A DNA stretch of 64,000 nucleotides from an uncultured Actinomycetota bacterium (lineage in GTDB: Bacteria > Actinomycetota > Actinomycetes > JAHEKZ01). Within the stretch, counting starts at the first letter, position 1; each line of letters starts with the position of its first letter. The stretch spans positions 384,001-448,000 of the forward strand of contig CAVURN010000005.1 in NCBI GenBank assembly GCA_963743915.1, given 5' to 3'. A model generated the notes under the pieces. It worked only from the letters and a program-made list of their open reading frames with translations, ran no database searches and was not told where the DNA came from. Both the position numbers and the translations under genes were made by a program. This document shows positions 2,820 to 44,023 of this stretch, one piece after another.

Positions 2820-4263
2820 ATGACCCACACATGGACTACGCCGCAACTCAAAAAGCTCGACGCGCCAGATACGGTGACTCGGTCTTACTGGTTGCGCGAC
2901 TTACAGGCAACAAAGTCGCCGGGACCTGGTCATCAGCCCCTTCTCTCATCGGTGCAGGCCGACATCTGCATAGTTGGTGGCGGGTTCACAGGGCTGTGGA
3001 CGGCCATCGAGCTCAAGCAACGGCAGCCGAGTATCAATGTTGTCCTGCTGGAGGGCAGCCTGTGTGGCGCCGGAGCCAGTGGCACCAACGCCGGGATACT
3101 AATGAACCTATGGCCAAAGCTCCCGGCCCTCGTGCGGTTTGGCGGGCAGAGCGAAGGCCCCGAGATCGCGCGAGCCTCGGTCGACGCCATCGATCACATC
3201 AAGCGGTTCTGCGTCGATCACGAGATCGACGCCCAGATGGAGTCGAACGGCTGGCTGTGGGCGTCGAACAACAGCAGTCAGGATGGCGCGTGGGAGGACA
3301 CCATGGCTGCCGCTGCCCTCCATCACGGCTCTCCCTTCGTCGAGGTCGACGCTGACACTGCGACCCGGCTGGCGGGTGCCCCGGTACGCGGCGGCCTCGT
3401 AGACCCCACCTGTGTTGGCCTCCACCCCGTCCGCTTGGTCGACGGGCTCCTGGCAGTTGCCGCGCGCCCTAGGTGTCACGGTGTACGAGCACAGCCCGAT
3501 GACGGGGATGGCGTCGAGATCACGGAGTGACGACCGTCTTCAGCCGCTATGGCAGAGTTCGCGCCGAGTCGGTGGTGTTGGCGATCAACGCATGGTGCAC
3601 CAGTTCCCTGCAGTTGAGATCGCACCTGGTGATGACGGCATCCGACAATGTCGTGGTCCGACCGCGGGCAGCCGCCGTCAAGTGCACCACTCACCAACGT
3701 GTCCGACGCTGGCCGCCTGCTCGACTACTGGCGACCCGTTGGCGGATGGGAAACTTCTCTTCGGCAAGGCAGGCCTCGGGCTCGGCTGGGGTTCGCGCGG
3801 GGCGAGCACGCTGTTTAGCACAGCCCCCCACGCCTGGGACGCCTGCTGTGCAGCAGATTGCAGCGGACACGTTCCCGATGCTGCCGATGCCGAGGTGCGT
3901 GTCGTCCTGGCGAGCTCCAGTCGAGTACTCGCTCTCCTCGCTGCCGTTCTTCGGCGAGCTCTCCGGACATCCCAGGTGTCTTCTTCGGCACTGGCTATTC
4001 CGGCGACGGAATCGGCCCGTCGGTGCTCGGTGCGCGCATCCTCGCGAGTCTGGCAACCGGCGCCAAGGATGGTCTCTCTACTTCCTTCCTGACCCGTCCA
4101 CCGTCACGAAGCTGGCTGCCGCCGGAGCCCATTCGATTCCTCGGCGGGCAGCTAGTCAAGTCGGCGATGCTCAGGCAAGGATCGCAAGCAGGACGAGGAG
4201 CGGCGGGTCGGCGTGGCCACCGGTCTTCTGAGCCGCATGGATCCGACCACGTTCGTCGGGTGA
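2820..4263 (+). CDS. FAD-dependent oxidoreductase, DAO/PuuB-like family (several frameshifts)
   Basis: SYW...ADICIVGGGFTGLWTA, GAGASGTNAG, C-terminal GYSGDGIGPSVLGARILASLA; end coordinate approximate. Confidence 0.75.
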
Positions 4264-4284: not shown

Positions 4285-5442
4285 GTGCGGGAGATCTTGG
4301 ATGAACTGACCGACGTGGTGGGAGACGGAGTGAGACAGTCGGGTTGGCCACCGTCATTAACACGTCGAGGTCTGCCCCGCGCGATCCGGGCGCGTCCATG
4401 GTCGTCGGGCCCAGAAGGGACTGTGCACGGATCGGTTTCCGGAGGGTGCGTGGAAGGGGCCGTCTACGAACTCGCCCAGGAGGTCATGGCGGACGGCGCG
4501 CCCGTTCTCGAGCACTACGGCTTCTCCGATACAGACGCATTCGCGGTGGGTCTTACCTGTGGAGGTGAACTCGACGTCTTTGTCGAGCGCGTGAACCGAG
4601 CCACCTTCCCAGAATTGAGTAGCGTTGCCGACGATATCCGCAGTGGTCGGTACGTGGCGCTGGCGACGCTGGTTGACCATCCAGATCCCGCCTGGCGCGG
4701 TCGGCATCTTGCGTGCTCCACCCAACGAGAGTCCGGGGCTGCGACCACGGGGACTCTGGGAAGCGATCGGGCAGATGCCGCGGTCTCCGACGACGCCCTC
4801 GGCCTGCTCGCGGCCGGCCACCACGGCCTGCTGAGTTACGGACCTGACGGCCAACGGCTCGGCGAAGGCATGCGGGTGTTCGTTCAGTCCTTCGCACCAC
4901 CACCTCGGATGCTCGTGTTCGGCGCTATCGACTTCGCGTCTGCGGTTGCAGCAGCAGGCTCGTTCCTCGGCTACCAGGTCACTGTGTGCGACGCGCGAGC
5001 CGTCTTCGCTACGACAGCTCGGTTCCCGCGACGCAGACGAGGTGGTGGTCGACTGGCCACATCGATACCTCGCTGAGGAGCAGCCGGAGGGTCGGATCGA
5101 CGAACGCACGGTGATCGCCGTACTGACCCACGATCCGAAGTTCGATGTGCCGCTGCTGCAGGTGGCCCTCAGCCTGCCCGCCGCCTACATCGGCGTGATG
5201 GGATCGCGTCGCACGCACGAGGATCGGCTCGATCGACTGCGTAGGGCGGGTGTCGACGAGGACGCAGCTTGAACCGTCTGTCGAGCCCTATCGGCCTCGA
5301 CCTCGGGGCTCGCACTCCGGAGGAAACCGCCGTCAGCATCGCAGCCGACATCATCGCGTCCAAGTGGGGCGGGACTGGACTTCCACTACGTGCGACCACG
5401 GGCGCGATTCACCACACCGCATGTCGGTCGTCGCGAGGATGA
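4285..5442 (+). CDS. XdhC/CoxF-family molybdenum cofactor insertion chaperone (frameshifted)
   Basis: GSVSGGCVEGAV, AVGLTCGG, THDPKFD, YIGVMGSRRTH, SPIGLDLGARTPEETAVSI. Confidence 0.9.
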
Positions 5443-6328
5443 CCGCCGCCCAGATCCACACAGTCGACGACGTCGCCAACCGTCTAGCAGCAACCGGGTA
5501 CCTATGCGACCGTGAACTGGCTACCGTGGTGTTTCTCGCATTGCGTCTTGACCGACCAGTGCTGCTCGAGGGTGAGCCGGGCACAGGCAAGACCGCTCTG
5601 GCGGAAGCACTGGCCGAGTCGCTGGAGCTGCCTCTGCGTCCGGCTGCAATGCTACGAAGGAATCGACTGCCACTCAGGCGCTCTACGACTGGGACTTTCC
5701 TCGGCAGATCCTTCACCTCCGTACGCTGGAGGCCATTGGTGGCGCCGCCGGAACATCGGTGGAGGAAGCCGAACAGAGTCTGTTCGACGAGCGGTTTCTG
5801 ATTCTGCGGCCCGTTCTGGCGGCGCTGAAGGAGGCGCCGAATGTGCTGCTGGTCGATGAAGTCGACCGAGCCGATGATGAGTTCGAGGCCTTCTTGCTCG
5901 AGGTCCTCTCGACCTATCAGGTGACGATCCCCGAGCTTGGCACAGTGCGAGCAACTGTGCCCCCACTGGTTGTGCTGACCTCGAACCGGACCCGCGAGCT
6001 GCATGATGCCTTGAAGCGCCGCTGTCTCTACCATTGGATCGACCATCCGACGCTCGACCGCGAGTTGATGATCGTGCGGTCACGCGCGCCGGAGGCTTCC
6101 GGGTCCCTGGCCAGGAGGGTTGTGGAAGTAGTGCAAGCCATTCGGACCGACCACTCACTCTTGAAGCCCCCTGGGGTAGCCGAGACCTTGGACTGGACGC
6201 GCGCGCTTCACTGCCTGGGCGCGACCGAACTCGACCTGGGCACCGCGATCGCGACTCTTGGAGCGTTGGTCAAGTACCGCGAGGACGGTGAGATCGTCCG
6301 CCGGGCCCTCCACCAGATCGACATCTGA
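5439..6328 (+). CDS. coxD: CoxD-like MoxR AAA+ ATPase (frameshifted copy)
   Basis: LLEGEPGTGKT, RLQCYEG, LLVDEVDRADDEFEAFLLE, TSNRTRELHDALKRRC. Confidence 0.85.
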
Positions 6329-38329: not shown

Positions 38330-38660
38330 GGAGTCGACGGAACGGTCTACTCCTCGCCGCTGCGCACCGGCCTCACGGAACGGATCGACAAGAAGACCGC
38401 CGAGATCCGACCCGTACGCCAAGATCCCGCCCGCCACCTCTACGGGGAGGCCGGCCAAGTGGGGATGGCCTGGGGAACCAAGTTCGCCATCGCCTCGCTG
38501 CGCTCGCCGATGAGCGGTCACCGAGTCGTCCTCGGCGTCGAGCACGTCCCACCCCGCGGTGGCGGTGGCGAAGCCGTGAGATTCGTCGACCTGATGGTCG
38601 ACCTTGCCGGTCGGTCTCCGGGGAGCTCGGCACCCACGCCCGACATCAGCGTGCTCAGCG
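38330..38660 (+). pseudogene. Possible DDE transposase remnant
   Basis: DGTVYSSP...WGTKFAIASLRS...VVLGVEHV resembles an IS4/IS5-like N2/N3 region; no intact start or end. Confidence 0.3.
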
Positions 38661-38793
38661 CCGCGAAATCGCTGCCGGACAGGCCCCAGGAGTCGAACCG
38701 GCGCCAAAGTGGGCCTCTAGACTTGCTCCGCCTCGGTCCGGACAGATCGCGGCAGGGTCCAGCAGGTTTCCCACAAGGAATCCCGCACGTCCC

Positions 38794-38866
38794 GCCCTCG
38801 TAGCTCAGGGGATAGAGCAGCGGTTTCCTAAACCGTGTGTCGCAGGTTCGATTCCTGCCGGGGGCA
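38794..38866 (+). tRNA. tRNA-Arg(CCT)
   Basis: GCCCTCG acceptor stem pairs with CGGGGGC; D arm GCTC/GAGC; anticodon loop TTCCTAA; T arm GCAGG-TTCGATT-CCTGC; CCA not encoded. Confidence 0.96.
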
Positions 38867-38875
38867 CCGTGGTTT

Positions 38876-40244
38876 TGTATTACTCCGGCTGATACGTGAC
38901 ATTTCGGCTTCGGCTGATCGCGTGACAGTGTTTCGGTTGATGGGTTACAGCTGCTTCGGTTGATTGGTGACACTCCCTGGATGAGGGAGATCAGTGTGGC
39001 TGAGCAGAGGTATCAGGCGGTTCTGGCGGTGCTTGCCGATGGCGAGACGGTGACCGATGTGGCGGCCCGGTTCGGGGTCTCGCGGAAGACCGCTTCATGG
39101 CTGGTTGCGCGAGGTACGAGGCCGGCGGGATGGAGGAGCTGGGGGATCGGTCGCATCGGCCGCGGTCGTGTCCGCATCAGATGTCGGCGGATGTGGAGGT
39201 GATGGTCGCGCGGTTGCGGCGGGCGCATCCGTCGTGGGGTCCGCGGCGGTTGGTGTTCGAGTTGGCCAAGGCGGGGGGTGGACCCGGTGCCGAGTGAGTC
39301 GGGGGTGTATCGGGCGCTGTCGCGGCTGAGACCTGGTTGATCCGGACGCGCGGCGGCCGCGGGAGCGGAAGTGGAAGCGGTGGGAGCGGGGCTCAGCCGA
39401 TGGAGTTGTGGCAGATGGATGTGGTGGGTGGGTTCGTGCTCGCTGATGGGCGGCGGGTCAAGGCGTTGACCGGGGTCGATGACCATTCCCGGTTCTGCGT
39501 GTCGGCGTTCTTGATGGTGCGGGAGTCCTCCAGCGCGTCTGTGAGCGGTCTGACGTTGGCGCTGCGGACCTATGGGGTTCCCGGGCAGGTACTGACCGAC
39601 AACGGGAAGGTCTTCACCGGGCGGTTCAACAGACCGCCGGTGGAGGTGCTGTTCGACCGGGTGCTGCGGGAGAACGGGATCGAGCATCTGCTGACCCAGC
39701 CCCGGTCCCCGACCACGACGGGGAAGGTGGAGCGGTTCCACCGGGCGATCCGGACCGAGTTCCGCACCGACCGGGTGTTCGCTGACCTTGGCGCCGCGCA
39801 GGCAGAGCTGGACGCCTGGGTGGAGCAGTACAACCATCAGCGACCGCACCAGGCCCTGCAGATGGCCACCCCCGCGTCACAGTTCCTCAACGCCCCCGCT
39901 TCGGTGGCTCCCCTGCGCCCGGTGCTGACCCGGGGCAGGCCGGACGCTGCCCGCGGCGACGGTGACTGGGTGGCCCGCCGGGCGTCCGCAGTGGGCGTTG
40001 TCACGGTGAACTGGCAACAGGTATGCCTGGGGATCGCAGCCGCCGGACGGAACATCGATGTCTGGGTCACCGACCAGGTCCTGCAGTTCTACGACGGCGA
40101 CACCCTGCTGCGAACAGAGAAACGGAGCACTCCTGGACCAGTCCGAAAGAAGCGGGCGTCGATCCCCGGCGGCCGCGAGACACTACGAGCGAGTGGAACC
40201 AATCAACCGACCTAGAACTGTCACCCATCACCCGAAGGTCAACA
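38876..40244 (+). mobile_element. IS481-family insertion sequence, copy 1
   Basis: TGT...ACA ends; repeated subterminal CGG(C/T)TGAT..GTGACA boxes; flanked by GGGCACCGTGGTTT direct repeats. Confidence 0.88.
38981..40215 (+). CDS. IS481-family DDE transposase (frameshifted)
   Basis: MREISVAEQRYQAV, ELWQMD, DDHSRF, LTDNGKVF, GKVERFH, YNHQRPHQAL. Confidence 0.9.
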
Positions 40245-40259
40245 GGGCACCGTGGTTTT

Positions 40260-41653
40260 TGTGTGGTCTCGGTTGAGTGGTGACGTTTCCTGCTCGCCTG
40301 AGGCTTGACGGTGTCTCGGCTGATGGTTGACACCGTCTCGGTTGATTCTTGACACCTGTTGGTTGCTGTCGTCGTCTCGTCGTAGGTCGAGGCGGAGGGA
40401 GCCCGATGGTGCTTCGGGAGCTGAGCGTGGCTGAGCAGCGGTATCAAGCGATTCTGGCGGTGATCGAGGATGGTCTGTCGGTCACGGAGGTGGCCGGCAA
40501 GGTGGGGGTGAGCCGGCAGACGCTGCATGCGTGGTTGGCGCGGTATGCGGCTGAGGGGCTGGAGGGTCTGGGTGATCGTTCGCATCGGCCGCGGTCGTGC
40601 CCGCATCAGATGGATCCGACGGTAGAAGTACGGATCACCGAGCTTCGAGCGTTGCATCCGGGGTGGGGGGCGGACCGGTTGGCGTATCGGCTGGGTCGGG
40701 AGGGGTTCGACCCGGTGCCGAGCCGGGCGGCGATCTCGCGGGCGTTGGTGCGGCTGGGGCTGGTCAACCATGACCGCCGCAAGGGGAAGCGGGAGTACCG
40801 CAGGTGGCAGCGGTCGCGGCCGATGGAGCTGTGGCAGATGGACGTGATGGGGGCGGTGATGCTCGCCGACGGCACCGAGCTGAAGGCGGTGACCGCGATC
40901 GATGACTGTTCCCGGTTCGCGTTGGCCGCGCGGTCTGGTGCGGCGGGCCTCCTCCCGTCCGGTTTGTGGGGTGTTCAGTCAGATCCTGACGCAGTTCGGG
41001 GCACCGGAGGAGGTGCTGACCGACAACGGGAAGGTGTTCACCGGCCGGTACTCGCTGCGCCCGATCGAGGTGCTGTTCGACCGGATCTGCCGGGAGAACG
41101 GCATCACCCATCGGCTGACCGCACCCCGGTCACCGACCACGACCGGCAAGATCGAACGGTTCCATGGCACCTTCCGACGCGAGCTGCTCAACGGGCGGGT
41201 GTTCGACTCGATCGCCGACGCCCAGCAGCAGGTCGATGCCTGGCTGGTGGAGTACAACACCGACCGTCCCCACGCCTCCTTGCAGCGGCGGACCCCGGCG
41301 GAGGTGTTCAACGGTCGCGACCCCGATGCCGGCCCACCGGTCAAGGTTGACCAGGTCCTGGTCCGCCGCGACGGTGACGGCTGGATCAGCCGTCGGGTCG
41401 CCTCCAACGGGATCATCTCCGTCGCCTGGCAGCAGATCAGCTGCGGCAAGTACCGCGCCGGCGAGATCGTCGACGTCCATCTCCGTGACGGCCTGGTCGA
41501 GATCTGGTCCGGCAACGACCTGATCCGCACCGTCGTCCGCGACAACGAAAGGAGCGTCCGCAAGAAGCGGGCCAGCAAACCCGCCCAAACATAGACTCAA
41601 GGCGTCAAGGATCACCCGAGCAGAAACCGTCAAGCATCAGGTGAGACCCGACA
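40260..41653 (+). mobile_element. IS481-family insertion sequence, copy 2 (diverged from copy 1)
   Basis: TGT...ACA ends; GTCTCGG(C/T)TGA..TGAC subterminal repeats, inverted at the right end. Confidence 0.88.
40406..41594 (+). CDS. IS481-family DDE transposase (one frameshift)
   Basis: LRELSVAEQRYQAI, ELWQMD, IDDCSRF, LTDNGKVF, GKIERFH, YNTDRPHASL. Confidence 0.9.
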
Positions 41654-41669
41654 GGGGCACCGTGTTCTG

Positions 41670-41710
41670 TGTGTGGTCTCGGTTGATGGTGAGCGTTCCG
41701 GTCTCGGCCG
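41670..41710 (+). mobile_element. Left-end remnant of a third IS481-like element
   Basis: TGTGTGGTCTCGGTTGA is identical to the copy-2 left end and is preceded by a degenerate tRNA-end copy; no transposase follows. Confidence 0.6.
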
Positions 41711-41819
41711 ACCCCAGACTGCGCCCGGTCACCGGAAAGCGCCAGGCGCGATCAAGGTGTAGCAGATCGGGTTATTGGGCATGGGGACGGTGAAACCTCA
41801 TGGAAGGACTGAGGTCATC

Positions 41820-42209
41820 ATGTCCATCTATCAACGCAAGCCGCACTTCGCAAAGGCATACTCGTTCGCCATTGTCACTGGTCTGCTCTTTCTGGTGAGC
41901 TGGCTTGCCCAGTTCCTGACCCAGATGCAGGTCGCTCGGGACGAAGCCAGTCAGCATGGCCAACCGTTCCTCTGGTCCGACTACCTGCCTCAGTTCTTCG
42001 CGTCGACTTTCGAGAACTGGCAGTCGGAGTTCCTGCAACTGATCTGGCAGGCCGCCGGACTGGCCTTCTTCTACTTCTGGGGCTCGTCACAGTCGCGGGA
42101 GAGCGACGAACGCCTCGAGGCGAAGATCGACACGCTCCTCCGGGAGCGAGGCGTCGATCCTCGTCAGGTCAACCAGGATCCCGTGGAAGAGGTCCTGGTC
42201 GCGCGACCT
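41820..42209 (+). CDS. DUF6766-like membrane protein (true stop unclear)
   Basis: FENWQSEFLQ motif and GSSQSRE; the ORF runs on antisense into the next gene, so the end is approximate. Confidence 0.65.
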
Positions 42210-42986
42210 CTAGCCGGACGTGATCGACTCGCACTTGAAGACGATGATGTCGCCGCGGTCGCGGATGGCCCTGTCCCTGCCGCCTCCGCAGTAGATCCGG
42301 TCAGCACCCTCACCACCCACGGCGGTGTCGGTGCCGTATCCGCCGGTGATGTGGTCGCTTCCCGGACCGCCCTTGACTCGATCGCGCTGGTCGCCCGTTC
42401 GGATCCAGTCGTCACCGGCTCCGCCGCGCACCCGATCGTGCCGGAAGCACCGTTGAAGAAGTCCGGACCTGAGCCCAGCAGAGCGGTGTCGTCGCCACCA
42501 TCACCCAGCACGGTCAGCGAGAACTCAGCGGACAACGTCGACCCGTCGACGAAGTCGTCGCCGAGTCTGGGCCAGACCTCCACGAGCAGGCGGTTGTCCT
42601 CGCTGATGCCGTACGGAATCGGGCACTTCGCAGCAATGCCAGCGGACGCCCTTGATCTCCGTGCACTGCGCCGGCAGCGCGTCGATGCGGTCGGTTCCCC
42701 TGTCCGCGAAGCGGAGCTGGTCGCCGACCTGGGTGATCACCAGGTGGCTGTTCTGCTGACCGGCGCGGTAGCGGTACCCGCAGTCGGTCTTGAGGATCCT
42801 GGCCGCGTTCTTCATCGCCAGGTGGGGGTTGCGCCCGAGGAGCTCAGTGGTGAAGGAACACGTGTCCGGACCTGCAGCCGGTTGCTGGGTCGCGGCTACA
42901 GAACTACCGCCTGTCATGAGCGAAGTGATTGCGACGGCCGTGAGGGCGGCCAGGGTGCCTGCGAGTCGTGCGTCTCGCCTGAACAT
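42210..42986 (-). CDS. Secreted hemolysin-type Ca-binding repeat protein, paralog 1 (frameshifted)
   Basis: Signal peptide; GGAGDDWI, GGPGSDHI, GGEGADRI nonapeptides; near-identical to paralog 2. Confidence 0.78.
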
Positions 42987-43246: not shown

Positions 43247-44023
43247 CTAGCTGGACGTGACCGACTCGCACTTGAAGACGATGATGTCGCCGGCGTCGCG
43301 GGTGGCCCTGTCCCGACCGCCGCCGCAGTAGAGACGGTCGGCGCCTTCACCGCCGACGATGGTGTCGGTGCCGTAGCCACCAGTGATGTGATCGTTTCCA
43401 GGGCCGGCCTTGACGCGATCGTGCTGGTCCCCCGTACGGATCCAGTCGTCTCCGGCACCGCCCTGTACTCGGTCGTTGCCGAAGGCTCCGTTGAAGAAGT
43501 CCGGGCCAGCCCCGAGGAGGGCCGTGTCGTTCCCACCATCGCCCAGCACCGTCAGGGAGAACTCCTCGGACAGCGTCGACCCGTCGACGAAGTCGTCGCC
43601 CAGTCTGGGCCAGACCTCGACGAGCAGCCGGTTGTCCACGCTGATGCCGTACGAGATCGGGCACTCGGCGGCGATGCCGCGGACGCCCTTGATCTCGGTG
43701 CACTTCGCCGGAAGCTTGTCGATGCGGTCCGTCCCCCTGTCCGCGAAGCGGAGCTTGTCGCCCACCTGGCGGATGACCAGGTGGCTGTCCTGCTGACCGG
43801 CGCGGTAGCGGTATCCGCAGTCGGTCTTGATGATCCTGGCCGCGTTCTTCATCGACAGATAGGGGTTGCGGTCAATGAGCTCCGTGGTGAAGGAGCAGGT
43901 GTCCGGACCAGCATCCGGCTGTGGTGCGGCGACGGCGCTGCCGCCGGCCATGATGGCCGTGGTCGTGGCAATGGTGATGAGGGCGGCCAGCGCCCCAGCA
44001 AGTCGTGCGTCTCGCCCGAACAT
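43247..44023 (-). CDS. Secreted hemolysin-type Ca-binding repeat protein, paralog 2
   Basis: Signal peptide; GGAGDDWI, AGPGNDHI, GGYGTDTI, GGEGADRL repeats. Confidence 0.85.
   Translation of the reverse strand: MFGRDARLAGALAALITIATTTAIMAGGSAVAAPQPDAGPDTCSFTTELIDRNPYLSMKNAARIIKTDCGYRYRAGQQDSHLVIRQVGDKLRFADRGTDRIDKLPAKCTEIKGVRGIAAECPISYGISVDNRLLVEVWPRLGDDFVDGSTLSEEFSLTVLGDGGNDTALLGAGPDFFNGAFGNDRVQGGAGDDWIRTGDQHDRVKAGPGNDHITGGYGTDTIVGGEGADRLYCGGGRDRATRDAGDIIVFKCESVTSS

Follow-up and report, generated by a model that had tools for sequence, protein, structure and literature searches.

A 64,000-nt stretch of DNA from an uncultured Actinomycetota bacterium (contig CAVURN010000005.1, positions 384,001–448,000; called the window below, with coordinates given as positions in it) carries, directly behind the gene for tRNA-Arg(CCT), a stack of co-oriented, single-gene insertion sequences (ISs) of ~1.37–1.39 kb. 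Judged by their sequence these are IS481-family DDE elements with one transposase gene of ~400 amino acids (aa), and they very probably belong to a clade that inserts into the 3′ ends of certain tRNA genes, at one particular site and in one orientation, with a long target duplication. At the loci described below it was observed where the elements insert, in which register and orientation, where the duplication comes from, that only certain classes of tRNA are used, and that an element in a relative has been active recently.

The array behind tRNA-Arg(CCT)

The tRNA-Arg(CCT) gene (38794–38868, + strand) is intact, was called by ARAGORN as the single tRNA gene of the window and matched Rfam RF00005 with 65.5 bits at 38794–38866; no second gene for this tRNA was found by ARAGORN in the genome. 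Its end and trailer read ...GGGGGCACC GTGGTTT, and the 14-mer GGGCACCGTGGTTT (38862–38875, + strand, exact match) comprises the final 7 nt of the gene, i.e. 4 nt of the acceptor stem followed by the discriminator A and by CC, and a further 7 nt from the trailer. It is followed directly by IS copy 1 (38876–40244, + strand; 1369 bp with TGT...ACA tips, delimited by sequence and repeat families), behind which the 14-mer recurs exactly (40245–40258, + strand) as the product of the copy 1 insertion. After one additional T at 40259 comes IS copy 2 (40260–41653, + strand; 1394 bp, same family and orientation, delimited by sequence), and then a degenerate third tRNA-end repeat, GGGGCACCGTGTTCTG (41654–41669, + strand), which differs from the 14-mer by 2 mismatches at 41655–41668 and is the distal duplication of copy 2. 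The array closes with the stump of a third element, a truncated left end (41670–41712, + strand, end approximate) recognised from its sequence and from direct repeat D6, which pairs 41655–41711 with 40245–40301 at 74% over 57 nt with the spacer counted in. An earlier note on this DNA had described the same succession, with all elements in one orientation, and it was confirmed in the sequence.

A search of the window for the 14-mer gave 12 matches, two of them exact, one with 2 mismatches and the other nine with 3, against 6.6 ± 2.5 expected; 4 of 100 shuffles also gave 12, so that the 3-mismatch matches are at chance level. Copies 1 and 2 were only 71% identical over ~850 nt, in agreement with the earlier note, which had called them diverged, and are therefore separate insertions and not a tandem duplication.

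The transposase gene of copy 1 (38981–40215, + strand) is broken, with pieces in two or more reading frames and TGA codons within the frame, and its six-frame protein matches are interrupted by stops; among its open reading frame (ORF) pieces (38960–39202, 39057–39329 and 39337–40215) the first carries Pfam helix-turn-helix (HTH) domains and the last rve/rve_3. The gene of copy 2 (40406–41594, + strand) has a single frameshift near 40933 between ORF 40349–41350, with HTH_32/LZ_Tnp_IS481, and ORF 40902–41594, with rve_3, and its six-frame match falls into two clean pieces (residues 5–180 and 181–401). Both full elements have ~4 direct subterminal repeats at the left end and 2 inverted ones at the right; in copy 1 these lie at 38876–38980 (type TCGGYTGAT..GTGACA) and 40188–40244, respectively (repeat families D3, D5, D9; inverted pairs I3, I4, I6). 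A likeness of the repeat TCGGYTGAT to the T-loop GGTTCGAT was considered as a cause of targeting and dropped, since orientation and spacing disagree. In a promoter and terminator scan of 38500–41900, 2 terminator-like sites were returned against 1.6 expected, both within the copy 1 gene, and no promoter-like site; no Rfam family beyond tRNA, and thus no known guide-type RNA, was matched at E up to 1.

Further copies in the same genome

The genome is a draft of 2.9 Mb in five contigs (70% G+C, 90% complete, 50 tRNA genes), with the array inside a 582-kb contig. By DNA and protein search, every copy or remnant found in it lay directly behind a tRNA gene and co-oriented with it, at five loci in all, and the four full-length copies were all tRNA-adjacent. 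Besides the window array at Arg(CCT), with its 14-bp duplication, there were an intact copy at Arg(ACG) on contig C3 with a perfect 15/15 duplication (GGCGCGCCAGCAGTT), a full but decayed copy at Thr(CGT) on C3 (15 bp, 1 mismatch, GCGGCTCCACGTCTC/..CCC), two stacked solo left ends at Lys(TTT) on C3 with a further stump 1.1 kb on, and a solo left end at Lys(CTT) on contig C5. Copy 1 of the window was 87% identical to the copy at Thr(CGT), and the first 99 nt of copy 2 were 98% identical to the solo left end behind Lys(TTT).

Since the duplicated sequence varies with the local tRNA, it derives from the target and is not borne by the element. The earlier note had named, as an observation that would count against it, a 14-mer belonging to the IS end; across Thr, Arg, Lys and Met loci the repeat changed with the tRNA.

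The locus behind Lys(TTT) (C3, 532657–533846) is composite. A solo left end is followed by another that retains a truncated start of the gene, then by an unrelated gene of ~240 codons and by the third stump, which a Lys(CTT)-like end precedes; the array may have been rearranged, or the whole may be a cassette without a transposase.

Transposase and family assignment

The intact copy on C3 encodes a protein of 402–407 aa, the conserved start MRE... being residue 6 of the longest frame. It scored 301.4 bits against the NCBIfam IS481 model NF033577 (cut-off 224), residues 14–305 covering profile positions 1–284 in full, and contained the Pfam domains HTH_28/32, LZ_Tnp_IS481, rve and rve_3. A single open transposase frame was present in this copy and in 24 relatives, the window copies being broken, and in these 25 sequences D145, D205 and E249 were invariant; from the motif they are read as the putative DDE catalytic triad. 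TGT was invariant in 62 left ends, ACA formed the right tips of the elements inspected, and the duplications of 14–15 bp lie at the upper end of the 2–15 bp of the family. With 1.37–1.39 kb the elements slightly exceed the IS481 size range in ISfinder.

Other assignments fitted less well. The protein stayed below the cut-offs of the models for IS1202/ISNCY (NF033594, 83.8 bits, cut-off 250), IS21 (NF033546, 73.4 bits, cut-off 160) and IS3, and the 1.37-kb element has no second ORF as in IS21. An element of 1.37–1.39 kb with one gene and no multi-gene module is not Tn7-like, and no recombinase ORF of an integrase-type island lies between 38869 and 41712.

In an AlphaFold model computed from the 25 sequences (predicted local distance difference test, pLDDT, 76), HTH domains are followed by an RNase H core, a disordered linker (304–325) and a six-stranded C-terminal barrel (332–383). 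The best Foldseek matches of the model were IS21 IstA, TnsB of Tn7 and of the CRISPR-associated transposons (CAST), MuA and retroviral integrases, and Pfam on the C-terminal 109 aa returned Mu-transpos_C_2 only, with E 0.11 and under the cut-off. The barrel was rejected as the sole cause of targeting, the domain not being peculiar to the clade: ISEc19 of E. coli aligns over residues 15–405.

Related loci in other genomes

Relatives were collected by scanning one genome per species with the intact C3 protein and keeping the best 80 matches to this one query; tRNA tallies and spacer lengths were counted by eye from alignments and listings. This gave 79 related loci (56–75% aa identity) in Actinomycetota, Chloroflexota, Dormibacterota and one Solibacter metagenome-assembled genome (MAG), the actinomycetes including Mycobacterium, Nocardioides, Jiangellaceae, Kineosporia, Ornithinimicrobium and Planktophila. 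Thirteen loci were uninformative, nine with less than ~110 nt upstream and four with a truncated left end (L042, L048, L063, L088).

In 59 of the 66 informative loci a complete same-strand tRNA gene adjoined the left tip or headed the stack: directly before the left end in 57, at L083, where the element behind the tRNA is split by an IS256-like element, and at L023, the second member of a stack headed by tRNA-Thr. Four more had a tRNA 3′ fragment or tRNA-like end (Arg(CCT) 3′ fragments at L026, L096 and L097, a T-arm-like end at L036). With 63 of 66 loci at a tRNA or tRNA 3′ fragment, the claim of the earlier note that a single-gene DDE lineage targets the tRNA end site-specifically was borne out, and random insertion of homologs at non-tRNA sites, which it had named as the contrary outcome, is not the pattern.

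The flank tabulation proposed there gave an equally narrow picture. At 62 junctions the spacer between tRNA position 75 and the tip TGT was 7 nt (36 junctions), 8 (17), 6 (4), 9 (3), 10 (1) or 3 (1), so that the left tip lay 6–8 nt past position 75 in 57 of them, and all 62 had one orientation. Duplications of 14–15 bp that matched the element's own tRNA were present in 8/8 elements checked, each running from 4–5 nt of the acceptor stem through the discriminator and all three CCA positions to 6 nt of trailer; the complete Mycobacterium genome at L022, for example, has a perfect 15-bp duplication at tRNA-Met. In one relative, G031, the full copies number exactly four and are 100% identical to one another over 1340 bp. 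They stand at Lys(CTT), Thr(TGT), Lys(TTT) and Arg(TCT), and every one has a perfect 15-bp duplication of the tRNA end at which it stands, which on this sequence pattern is a case of recent, strictly targeted transposition.

No clade member at ≥60% identity was found among 72,556 plasmids. The nearest plasmid homologs were proteins of ~600 aa, 53–59% identical and matching residues 8–311 only, and no tRNA lay within 1.5 kb of the two that were checked.

tRNA genes used as targets

The 64 target tRNAs (59 in relatives and 5 in the genome of the window) were all specific for Arg, Lys, Thr, Met or Asn. The relatives contributed Arg(CCT) at 10 loci, Arg(TCT) at 8 and Arg(ACG) at 1; Lys(TTT) at 11 and Lys(CTT) at 5; Thr(TGT) at 6, Thr(CGT) at 4 and Thr(GGT) at 1; Met at 12 and Asn at 1. 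None of the targets was an Ala, Gly, Val, Pro, Leu, Ser, Asp, Glu, Gln, His, Phe, Cys, Trp, Tyr or Ile tRNA gene. T36-A37-A38, the mark of tRNAs reading ANN codons, was the single shared feature and was found in 62/64, the exceptions being the two Arg(ACG). The targets share no acceptor-stem sequence, the stems being G-rich in Arg and C-rich in Met. In the genome of the window the T-arm and acceptor stem of tRNA-Arg(CCG) are near-identical to those of Arg(CCT), with a different anticodon loop and a variable loop of 4 vs 5 nt; Arg(CCG) is unused despite its near-identical 3′ end, so that the determinant is not simply the 3′ end.

Proposed insertion mechanism

In the insertion model that we favour, the left tip TGT would be joined ~6 nt past tRNA position 76 and the right tip ACA to the opposite strand 14–15 bp upstream, within the acceptor stem. 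With strand transfers 14–15 bp apart, gap repair would duplicate a stretch from the last 5 nt of the acceptor stem, over discriminator and CCA position, to the sixth nt of the trailer, leaving the whole tRNA on the left, a 9-nt tRNA scrap on the right and the transposase gene pointing away from the tRNA. The recognised part of the target would lie upstream in the tRNA gene, so that the site would survive each insertion and a later element would land between the tRNA and the earlier element. The stacks point the same way: in the window, at L092 and at Lys(TTT) of the same genome a second element used the site after everything beyond +7/+8 had been replaced, from which we infer that the targeting determinants lie upstream of that point, within the tRNA gene. 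The transposase itself would read this gene as DNA, and read-through from the tRNA promoter may feed the transposase gene.

For the window the model would make the stump the oldest insertion, copy 2 the next and copy 1 the latest, all being decayed now. The flanks of copy 1 are identical at 14/14 positions, those of copy 2 have diverged, and the outermost element is a stump; at Lys(TTT) of G031, one of the four 100%-identical copies has the tRNA on one side and, on the other, a left end that is older and has diverged. The suggestion of the earlier note that the newest copy stands next to the tRNA is supported less firmly than the targeting itself: it gains from the G031 locus and from the repeats around copy 1, and loses from the state of the copy 1 gene.

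The latter is one of several points that weigh against the model. Copy 1, which the model takes as the later of the two insertions, has decayed further than copy 2 and has more frame breaks; possibly it was already defective at the time of its mobilisation, or the consensus in this part is imperfect. Three of the 66 informative loci have no tRNA-like flank (L043 and L044 from Dormibacteria, with the tip TGAATCC, and L098), and some junctions are off register (L080 at 3 nt, L072 at ~10 nt, and L071, L073 and L087 at 9 nt). The counts do not stand for independent events, the relatives being the best 80 matches and partly kin by descent. tRNA-Arg(CCG), the near-twin of Arg(CCT), is never used; direct DNA read-out by the transposase is a proposal, and any binding of it to a part of the tRNA is hypothetical. 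No contig among four runs of Logan contigs from soil and sediment metagenomes (share of words at most 0.44; 90–99% alike and hence from relatives) spans the array, so that the assembly's own junctions were neither confirmed nor refuted by them. A search of 30 relatives with window positions 41716–42700 gave no orthologous flank and hence no exact pre-insertion site. The earlier note had proposed to inspect empty tRNA-Arg(CCT) loci in relatives, and a search with the upstream flank did give two in the same genus, G001 and G003, with no IS behind the tRNA, but with different downstream DNA in place of a same-flank pre-insertion site.

Alternative explanations

The alternative that survives best, although we regard it as rather unlikely, accepts the targeting as real and has the site marked by the tRNA molecule or its nascent transcript, through an RNA bridge or R-loop, or by a host protein at the end of the gene, in place of a plain read-out of double-stranded DNA. 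It would account for targets that form a functional class (62/64 with T36-A37-A38) while their acceptor stems vary widely, for the neglect of Arg(CCG) with its shared T-arm and acceptor, and for a distinguishing anticodon loop that lies ~40 bp from the insertion point; the structural relatives IstA, TnsB and MuA, moreover, select their targets via partner proteins. Against this, the element has no second gene and no known RNA family, Arg(ACG) is outside the class, the variable loop of Arg(CCG), at 4 vs 5 nt, would alter the spacing in DNA too, and we know of no bacterial protein that marks tRNA genes. A more specific form, that the clade picks its site by tRNA identity and that the transposase recognises the tRNA or nascent transcript as a guide or bridge to its own gene, must be rated somewhat less probable again; if true, it would amount to host-RNA-directed DDE transposition encoded by a single gene.

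Compared with this, it is very improbable that insertion is near random and that tRNA-adjacent copies survive as harmless, i.e. that the safe harbour is made by selection. The tRNA is indeed left intact, and tRNA 3′ flanks are known to be variable, as they are within the genus, where the flanks differ and one has an integrase-type remnant. Selection, however, cannot yield the register of 57/62, the orientation of 62/62 and five amino-acid families, nor four 100% identical copies in G031 that are all at tRNAs and in the same register, and 50 tRNA ends make up ~1 in 10,000 of the oriented positions of a 2.9-Mb genome.

Less credible still is the view that the repeats are att cores of integrase-type, site-specific recombination or that the element brings a tRNA end of its own: foreign DNA between direct repeats of a tRNA 3′ end is the classic integrase signature, and a genuine 45-nt tRNA-half repeat exists in the relative G003, but the array has no integrase and as its sole gene a DDE transposase, the repeats abut the TGT/ACA tips exactly, identical elements bear four different repeats that follow the local tRNA, and a repeat of 14–15 bp reaching 6 nt beyond the tRNA fits a staggered cut.

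Equally hard to sustain is the explanation of the stack as an assembly artefact of collapsed or chimeric repeats, for which the draft state of the genome (five contigs, 90% complete), the lack of a spanning metagenome contig and the many single-base indels of copy 1 against its relatives, possibly in part consensus errors, can be cited, since 71% identity is too low for an assembler to confuse the copies, the array lies inside the 582-kb contig, like stacks occur in independent genomes (L023, L092) and metagenome contigs diverge exactly at 38876, 40244, 40260 and 41653. A misassembled junction, which the earlier note had named as a possible refutation, is thus unlikely. Relative to metagenome contigs of the four runs with 95–99% similarity, copy 1 (38923–39545) has at least 8 single-base indels within ~620 nt, which are either real decay or assembly consensus errors. 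One X3 metagenome contig runs directly from the tRNA end at 38868 to the copy 2 tip at 40260, 7 other letters intervening; its short side measures 29 letters, below the 30 under which the tool advises caution, and it was given no weight.

Comparison with known systems

Duplications of IS481-family members range from 2 to 15 bp and are mostly 6 bp long, with 15 bp for ISMac4 and ISA0963-1 and also for the eukaryotic IS481EU (PMC10045372, accessible part). The figure of about 6 bp that the earlier note gave as typical therefore holds for most members, but not for the whole range, 15-bp members having been published. These share with the window elements one DDE gene, TGT...ACA tips and a duplication of ~15 bp; the word 'tRNA' does not occur in PMC10045372. 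IS481 proper targets NCTAGN, as described for ISLxc2 (PMC2516522, accessible part). No report of tRNA targeting by IS481-family elements was found in the full-text literature, with ISfinder, TnPedia and supplements lying outside the search and possibly holding one. Targeting of tRNA ends may thus be new for IS481, whereas the 15-bp duplication and fixed-site targeting by a single-gene IS were already known.

The latter is represented by the 'dif site hunters' of the IS1202 family (ISAjo2, ISAba32, ISAba71), which according to the available portions of PMC10132070 and 10.1101/2022.12.17.520857 insert at a fixed distance of 5 bp, in fixed orientation and in tandem. They are single-gene DDE ISs, distantly related to IS481/IS3, and resemble the window elements in fixed-site insertion; they differ in target and duplication, a XerC/D site and 5 bp there against a tRNA and 14–15 bp here.

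Tn7-like elements and CAST share with the window elements the orientation-specific insertion past a conserved essential gene without its breakage, and asymmetric ends with several transposase-binding repeats. The modelled transposase core and beta-barrel resemble TnsB, with a Foldseek E of 6e-14 to ShCAST TnsB. Tn7-like systems need TnsA/B/C together with either TnsD/TniQ or a guide RNA, their duplications are 5 bp long, and their homing beside tRNA genes is known; the window elements differ by having one gene and a ~15-bp duplication. IstA of IS21 gave the best whole-length structural match to the model (~399 aligned columns; 8q4d, 8b4h; E ~1e-15) and shares its order of HTH, RNase H core and C-terminal beta-barrel, a likeness at the level of the fold, whereas the window elements have no IstB helper gene.

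Ty3/Ty1 of yeast and TRE/DGLT-A of Dictyostelium are likewise placed by an integrase-fold enzyme at a fixed position beside tRNA genes, a safe harbour in which they pile up. They differ in that they are retroelements, recognise RNA polymerase III factors, which bacteria lack, and mostly insert upstream. Tyrosine-integrase islands use the same landmark and have tRNA-end repeats, but arise by conservative recombination over a 40–50-nt core (as in G003), in contrast to the DDE staggered cut of the window elements and its 15 bp running past the tRNA.

The clade adds a mode of target selection to bacterial ISs, in which an element with a single DDE gene locates the ends of a particular set of tRNA genes almost to the base and in one orientation; the members sampled come from four phyla or more. 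It accounts for tRNA-flanking 'islands' with tRNA-end repeats and no integrase, for which no lost integrase need be invoked. The stacks place homologous DNA behind different tRNA genes and so invite rearrangements between loci, as in the mismatched duplication at L023. The elements are a compact natural model of an integrase-fold enzyme that measures 15 bp between two strand transfers, and mapping of the determinants, should it succeed, would make them candidates for a one-protein tool that inserts DNA at a safe harbour in high-GC bacteria. The restriction to tRNAs that read ANN codons lends itself to a direct test.

Rearranged loci and neighbouring sequences

At L023 (900–2520), a pair behind tRNA-Thr(TGT), the spacer between the elements, GGCCCACCGACTGAGCG, is a tRNA-Lys-type end and unlike the Thr end opposite; the mismatched duplication likely arose by recombination between IS copies at different tRNA loci. 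The elements of L096 and L097 (Nocardioidaceae, ~2290–2420) stand behind ~45-nt 3′ halves of tRNA-Arg(CCT) and not behind whole genes, probably because, some time after the IS, an integrase-type island also integrated into the tRNA. In the same-genus genome G003 (L122, contig C3, 1501–2093) a 45-nt repeat of the 3′ half of tRNA-Arg(CCT) lies 470 bp downstream, a classic integrase-type footprint. Clade members are themselves disrupted by other ISs, with an IS256-like element inside L083 (940–2500) and IS3-like genes abutting L063 and L088.

Immediately downstream of the window array, a minus-strand gene (42210–42700) has an 85% identical paralogue 1 kb on (43247–43737). Upstream, the 90 nt before tRNA-Arg(CCT) (38714–38803, including about the first 10 nt of the tRNA) recur often in same-genus genomes without a tRNA, with 7 copies within 33 kb in G004 (among them 3305–3497, 4897–5089 and 6032–6224 at L163 on its contig C5). 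The units of this intergenic repeat are ~190 nt long and end in a hairpin, CCGCACGTCC-N10-GGACGTGCGG, the loop of which resembles the 5′ end of tRNA-Arg. In the genome of the window itself, a 78%-identical copy of this repeat (contig C5, 61028–61239) precedes tRNA-Arg(TCT).

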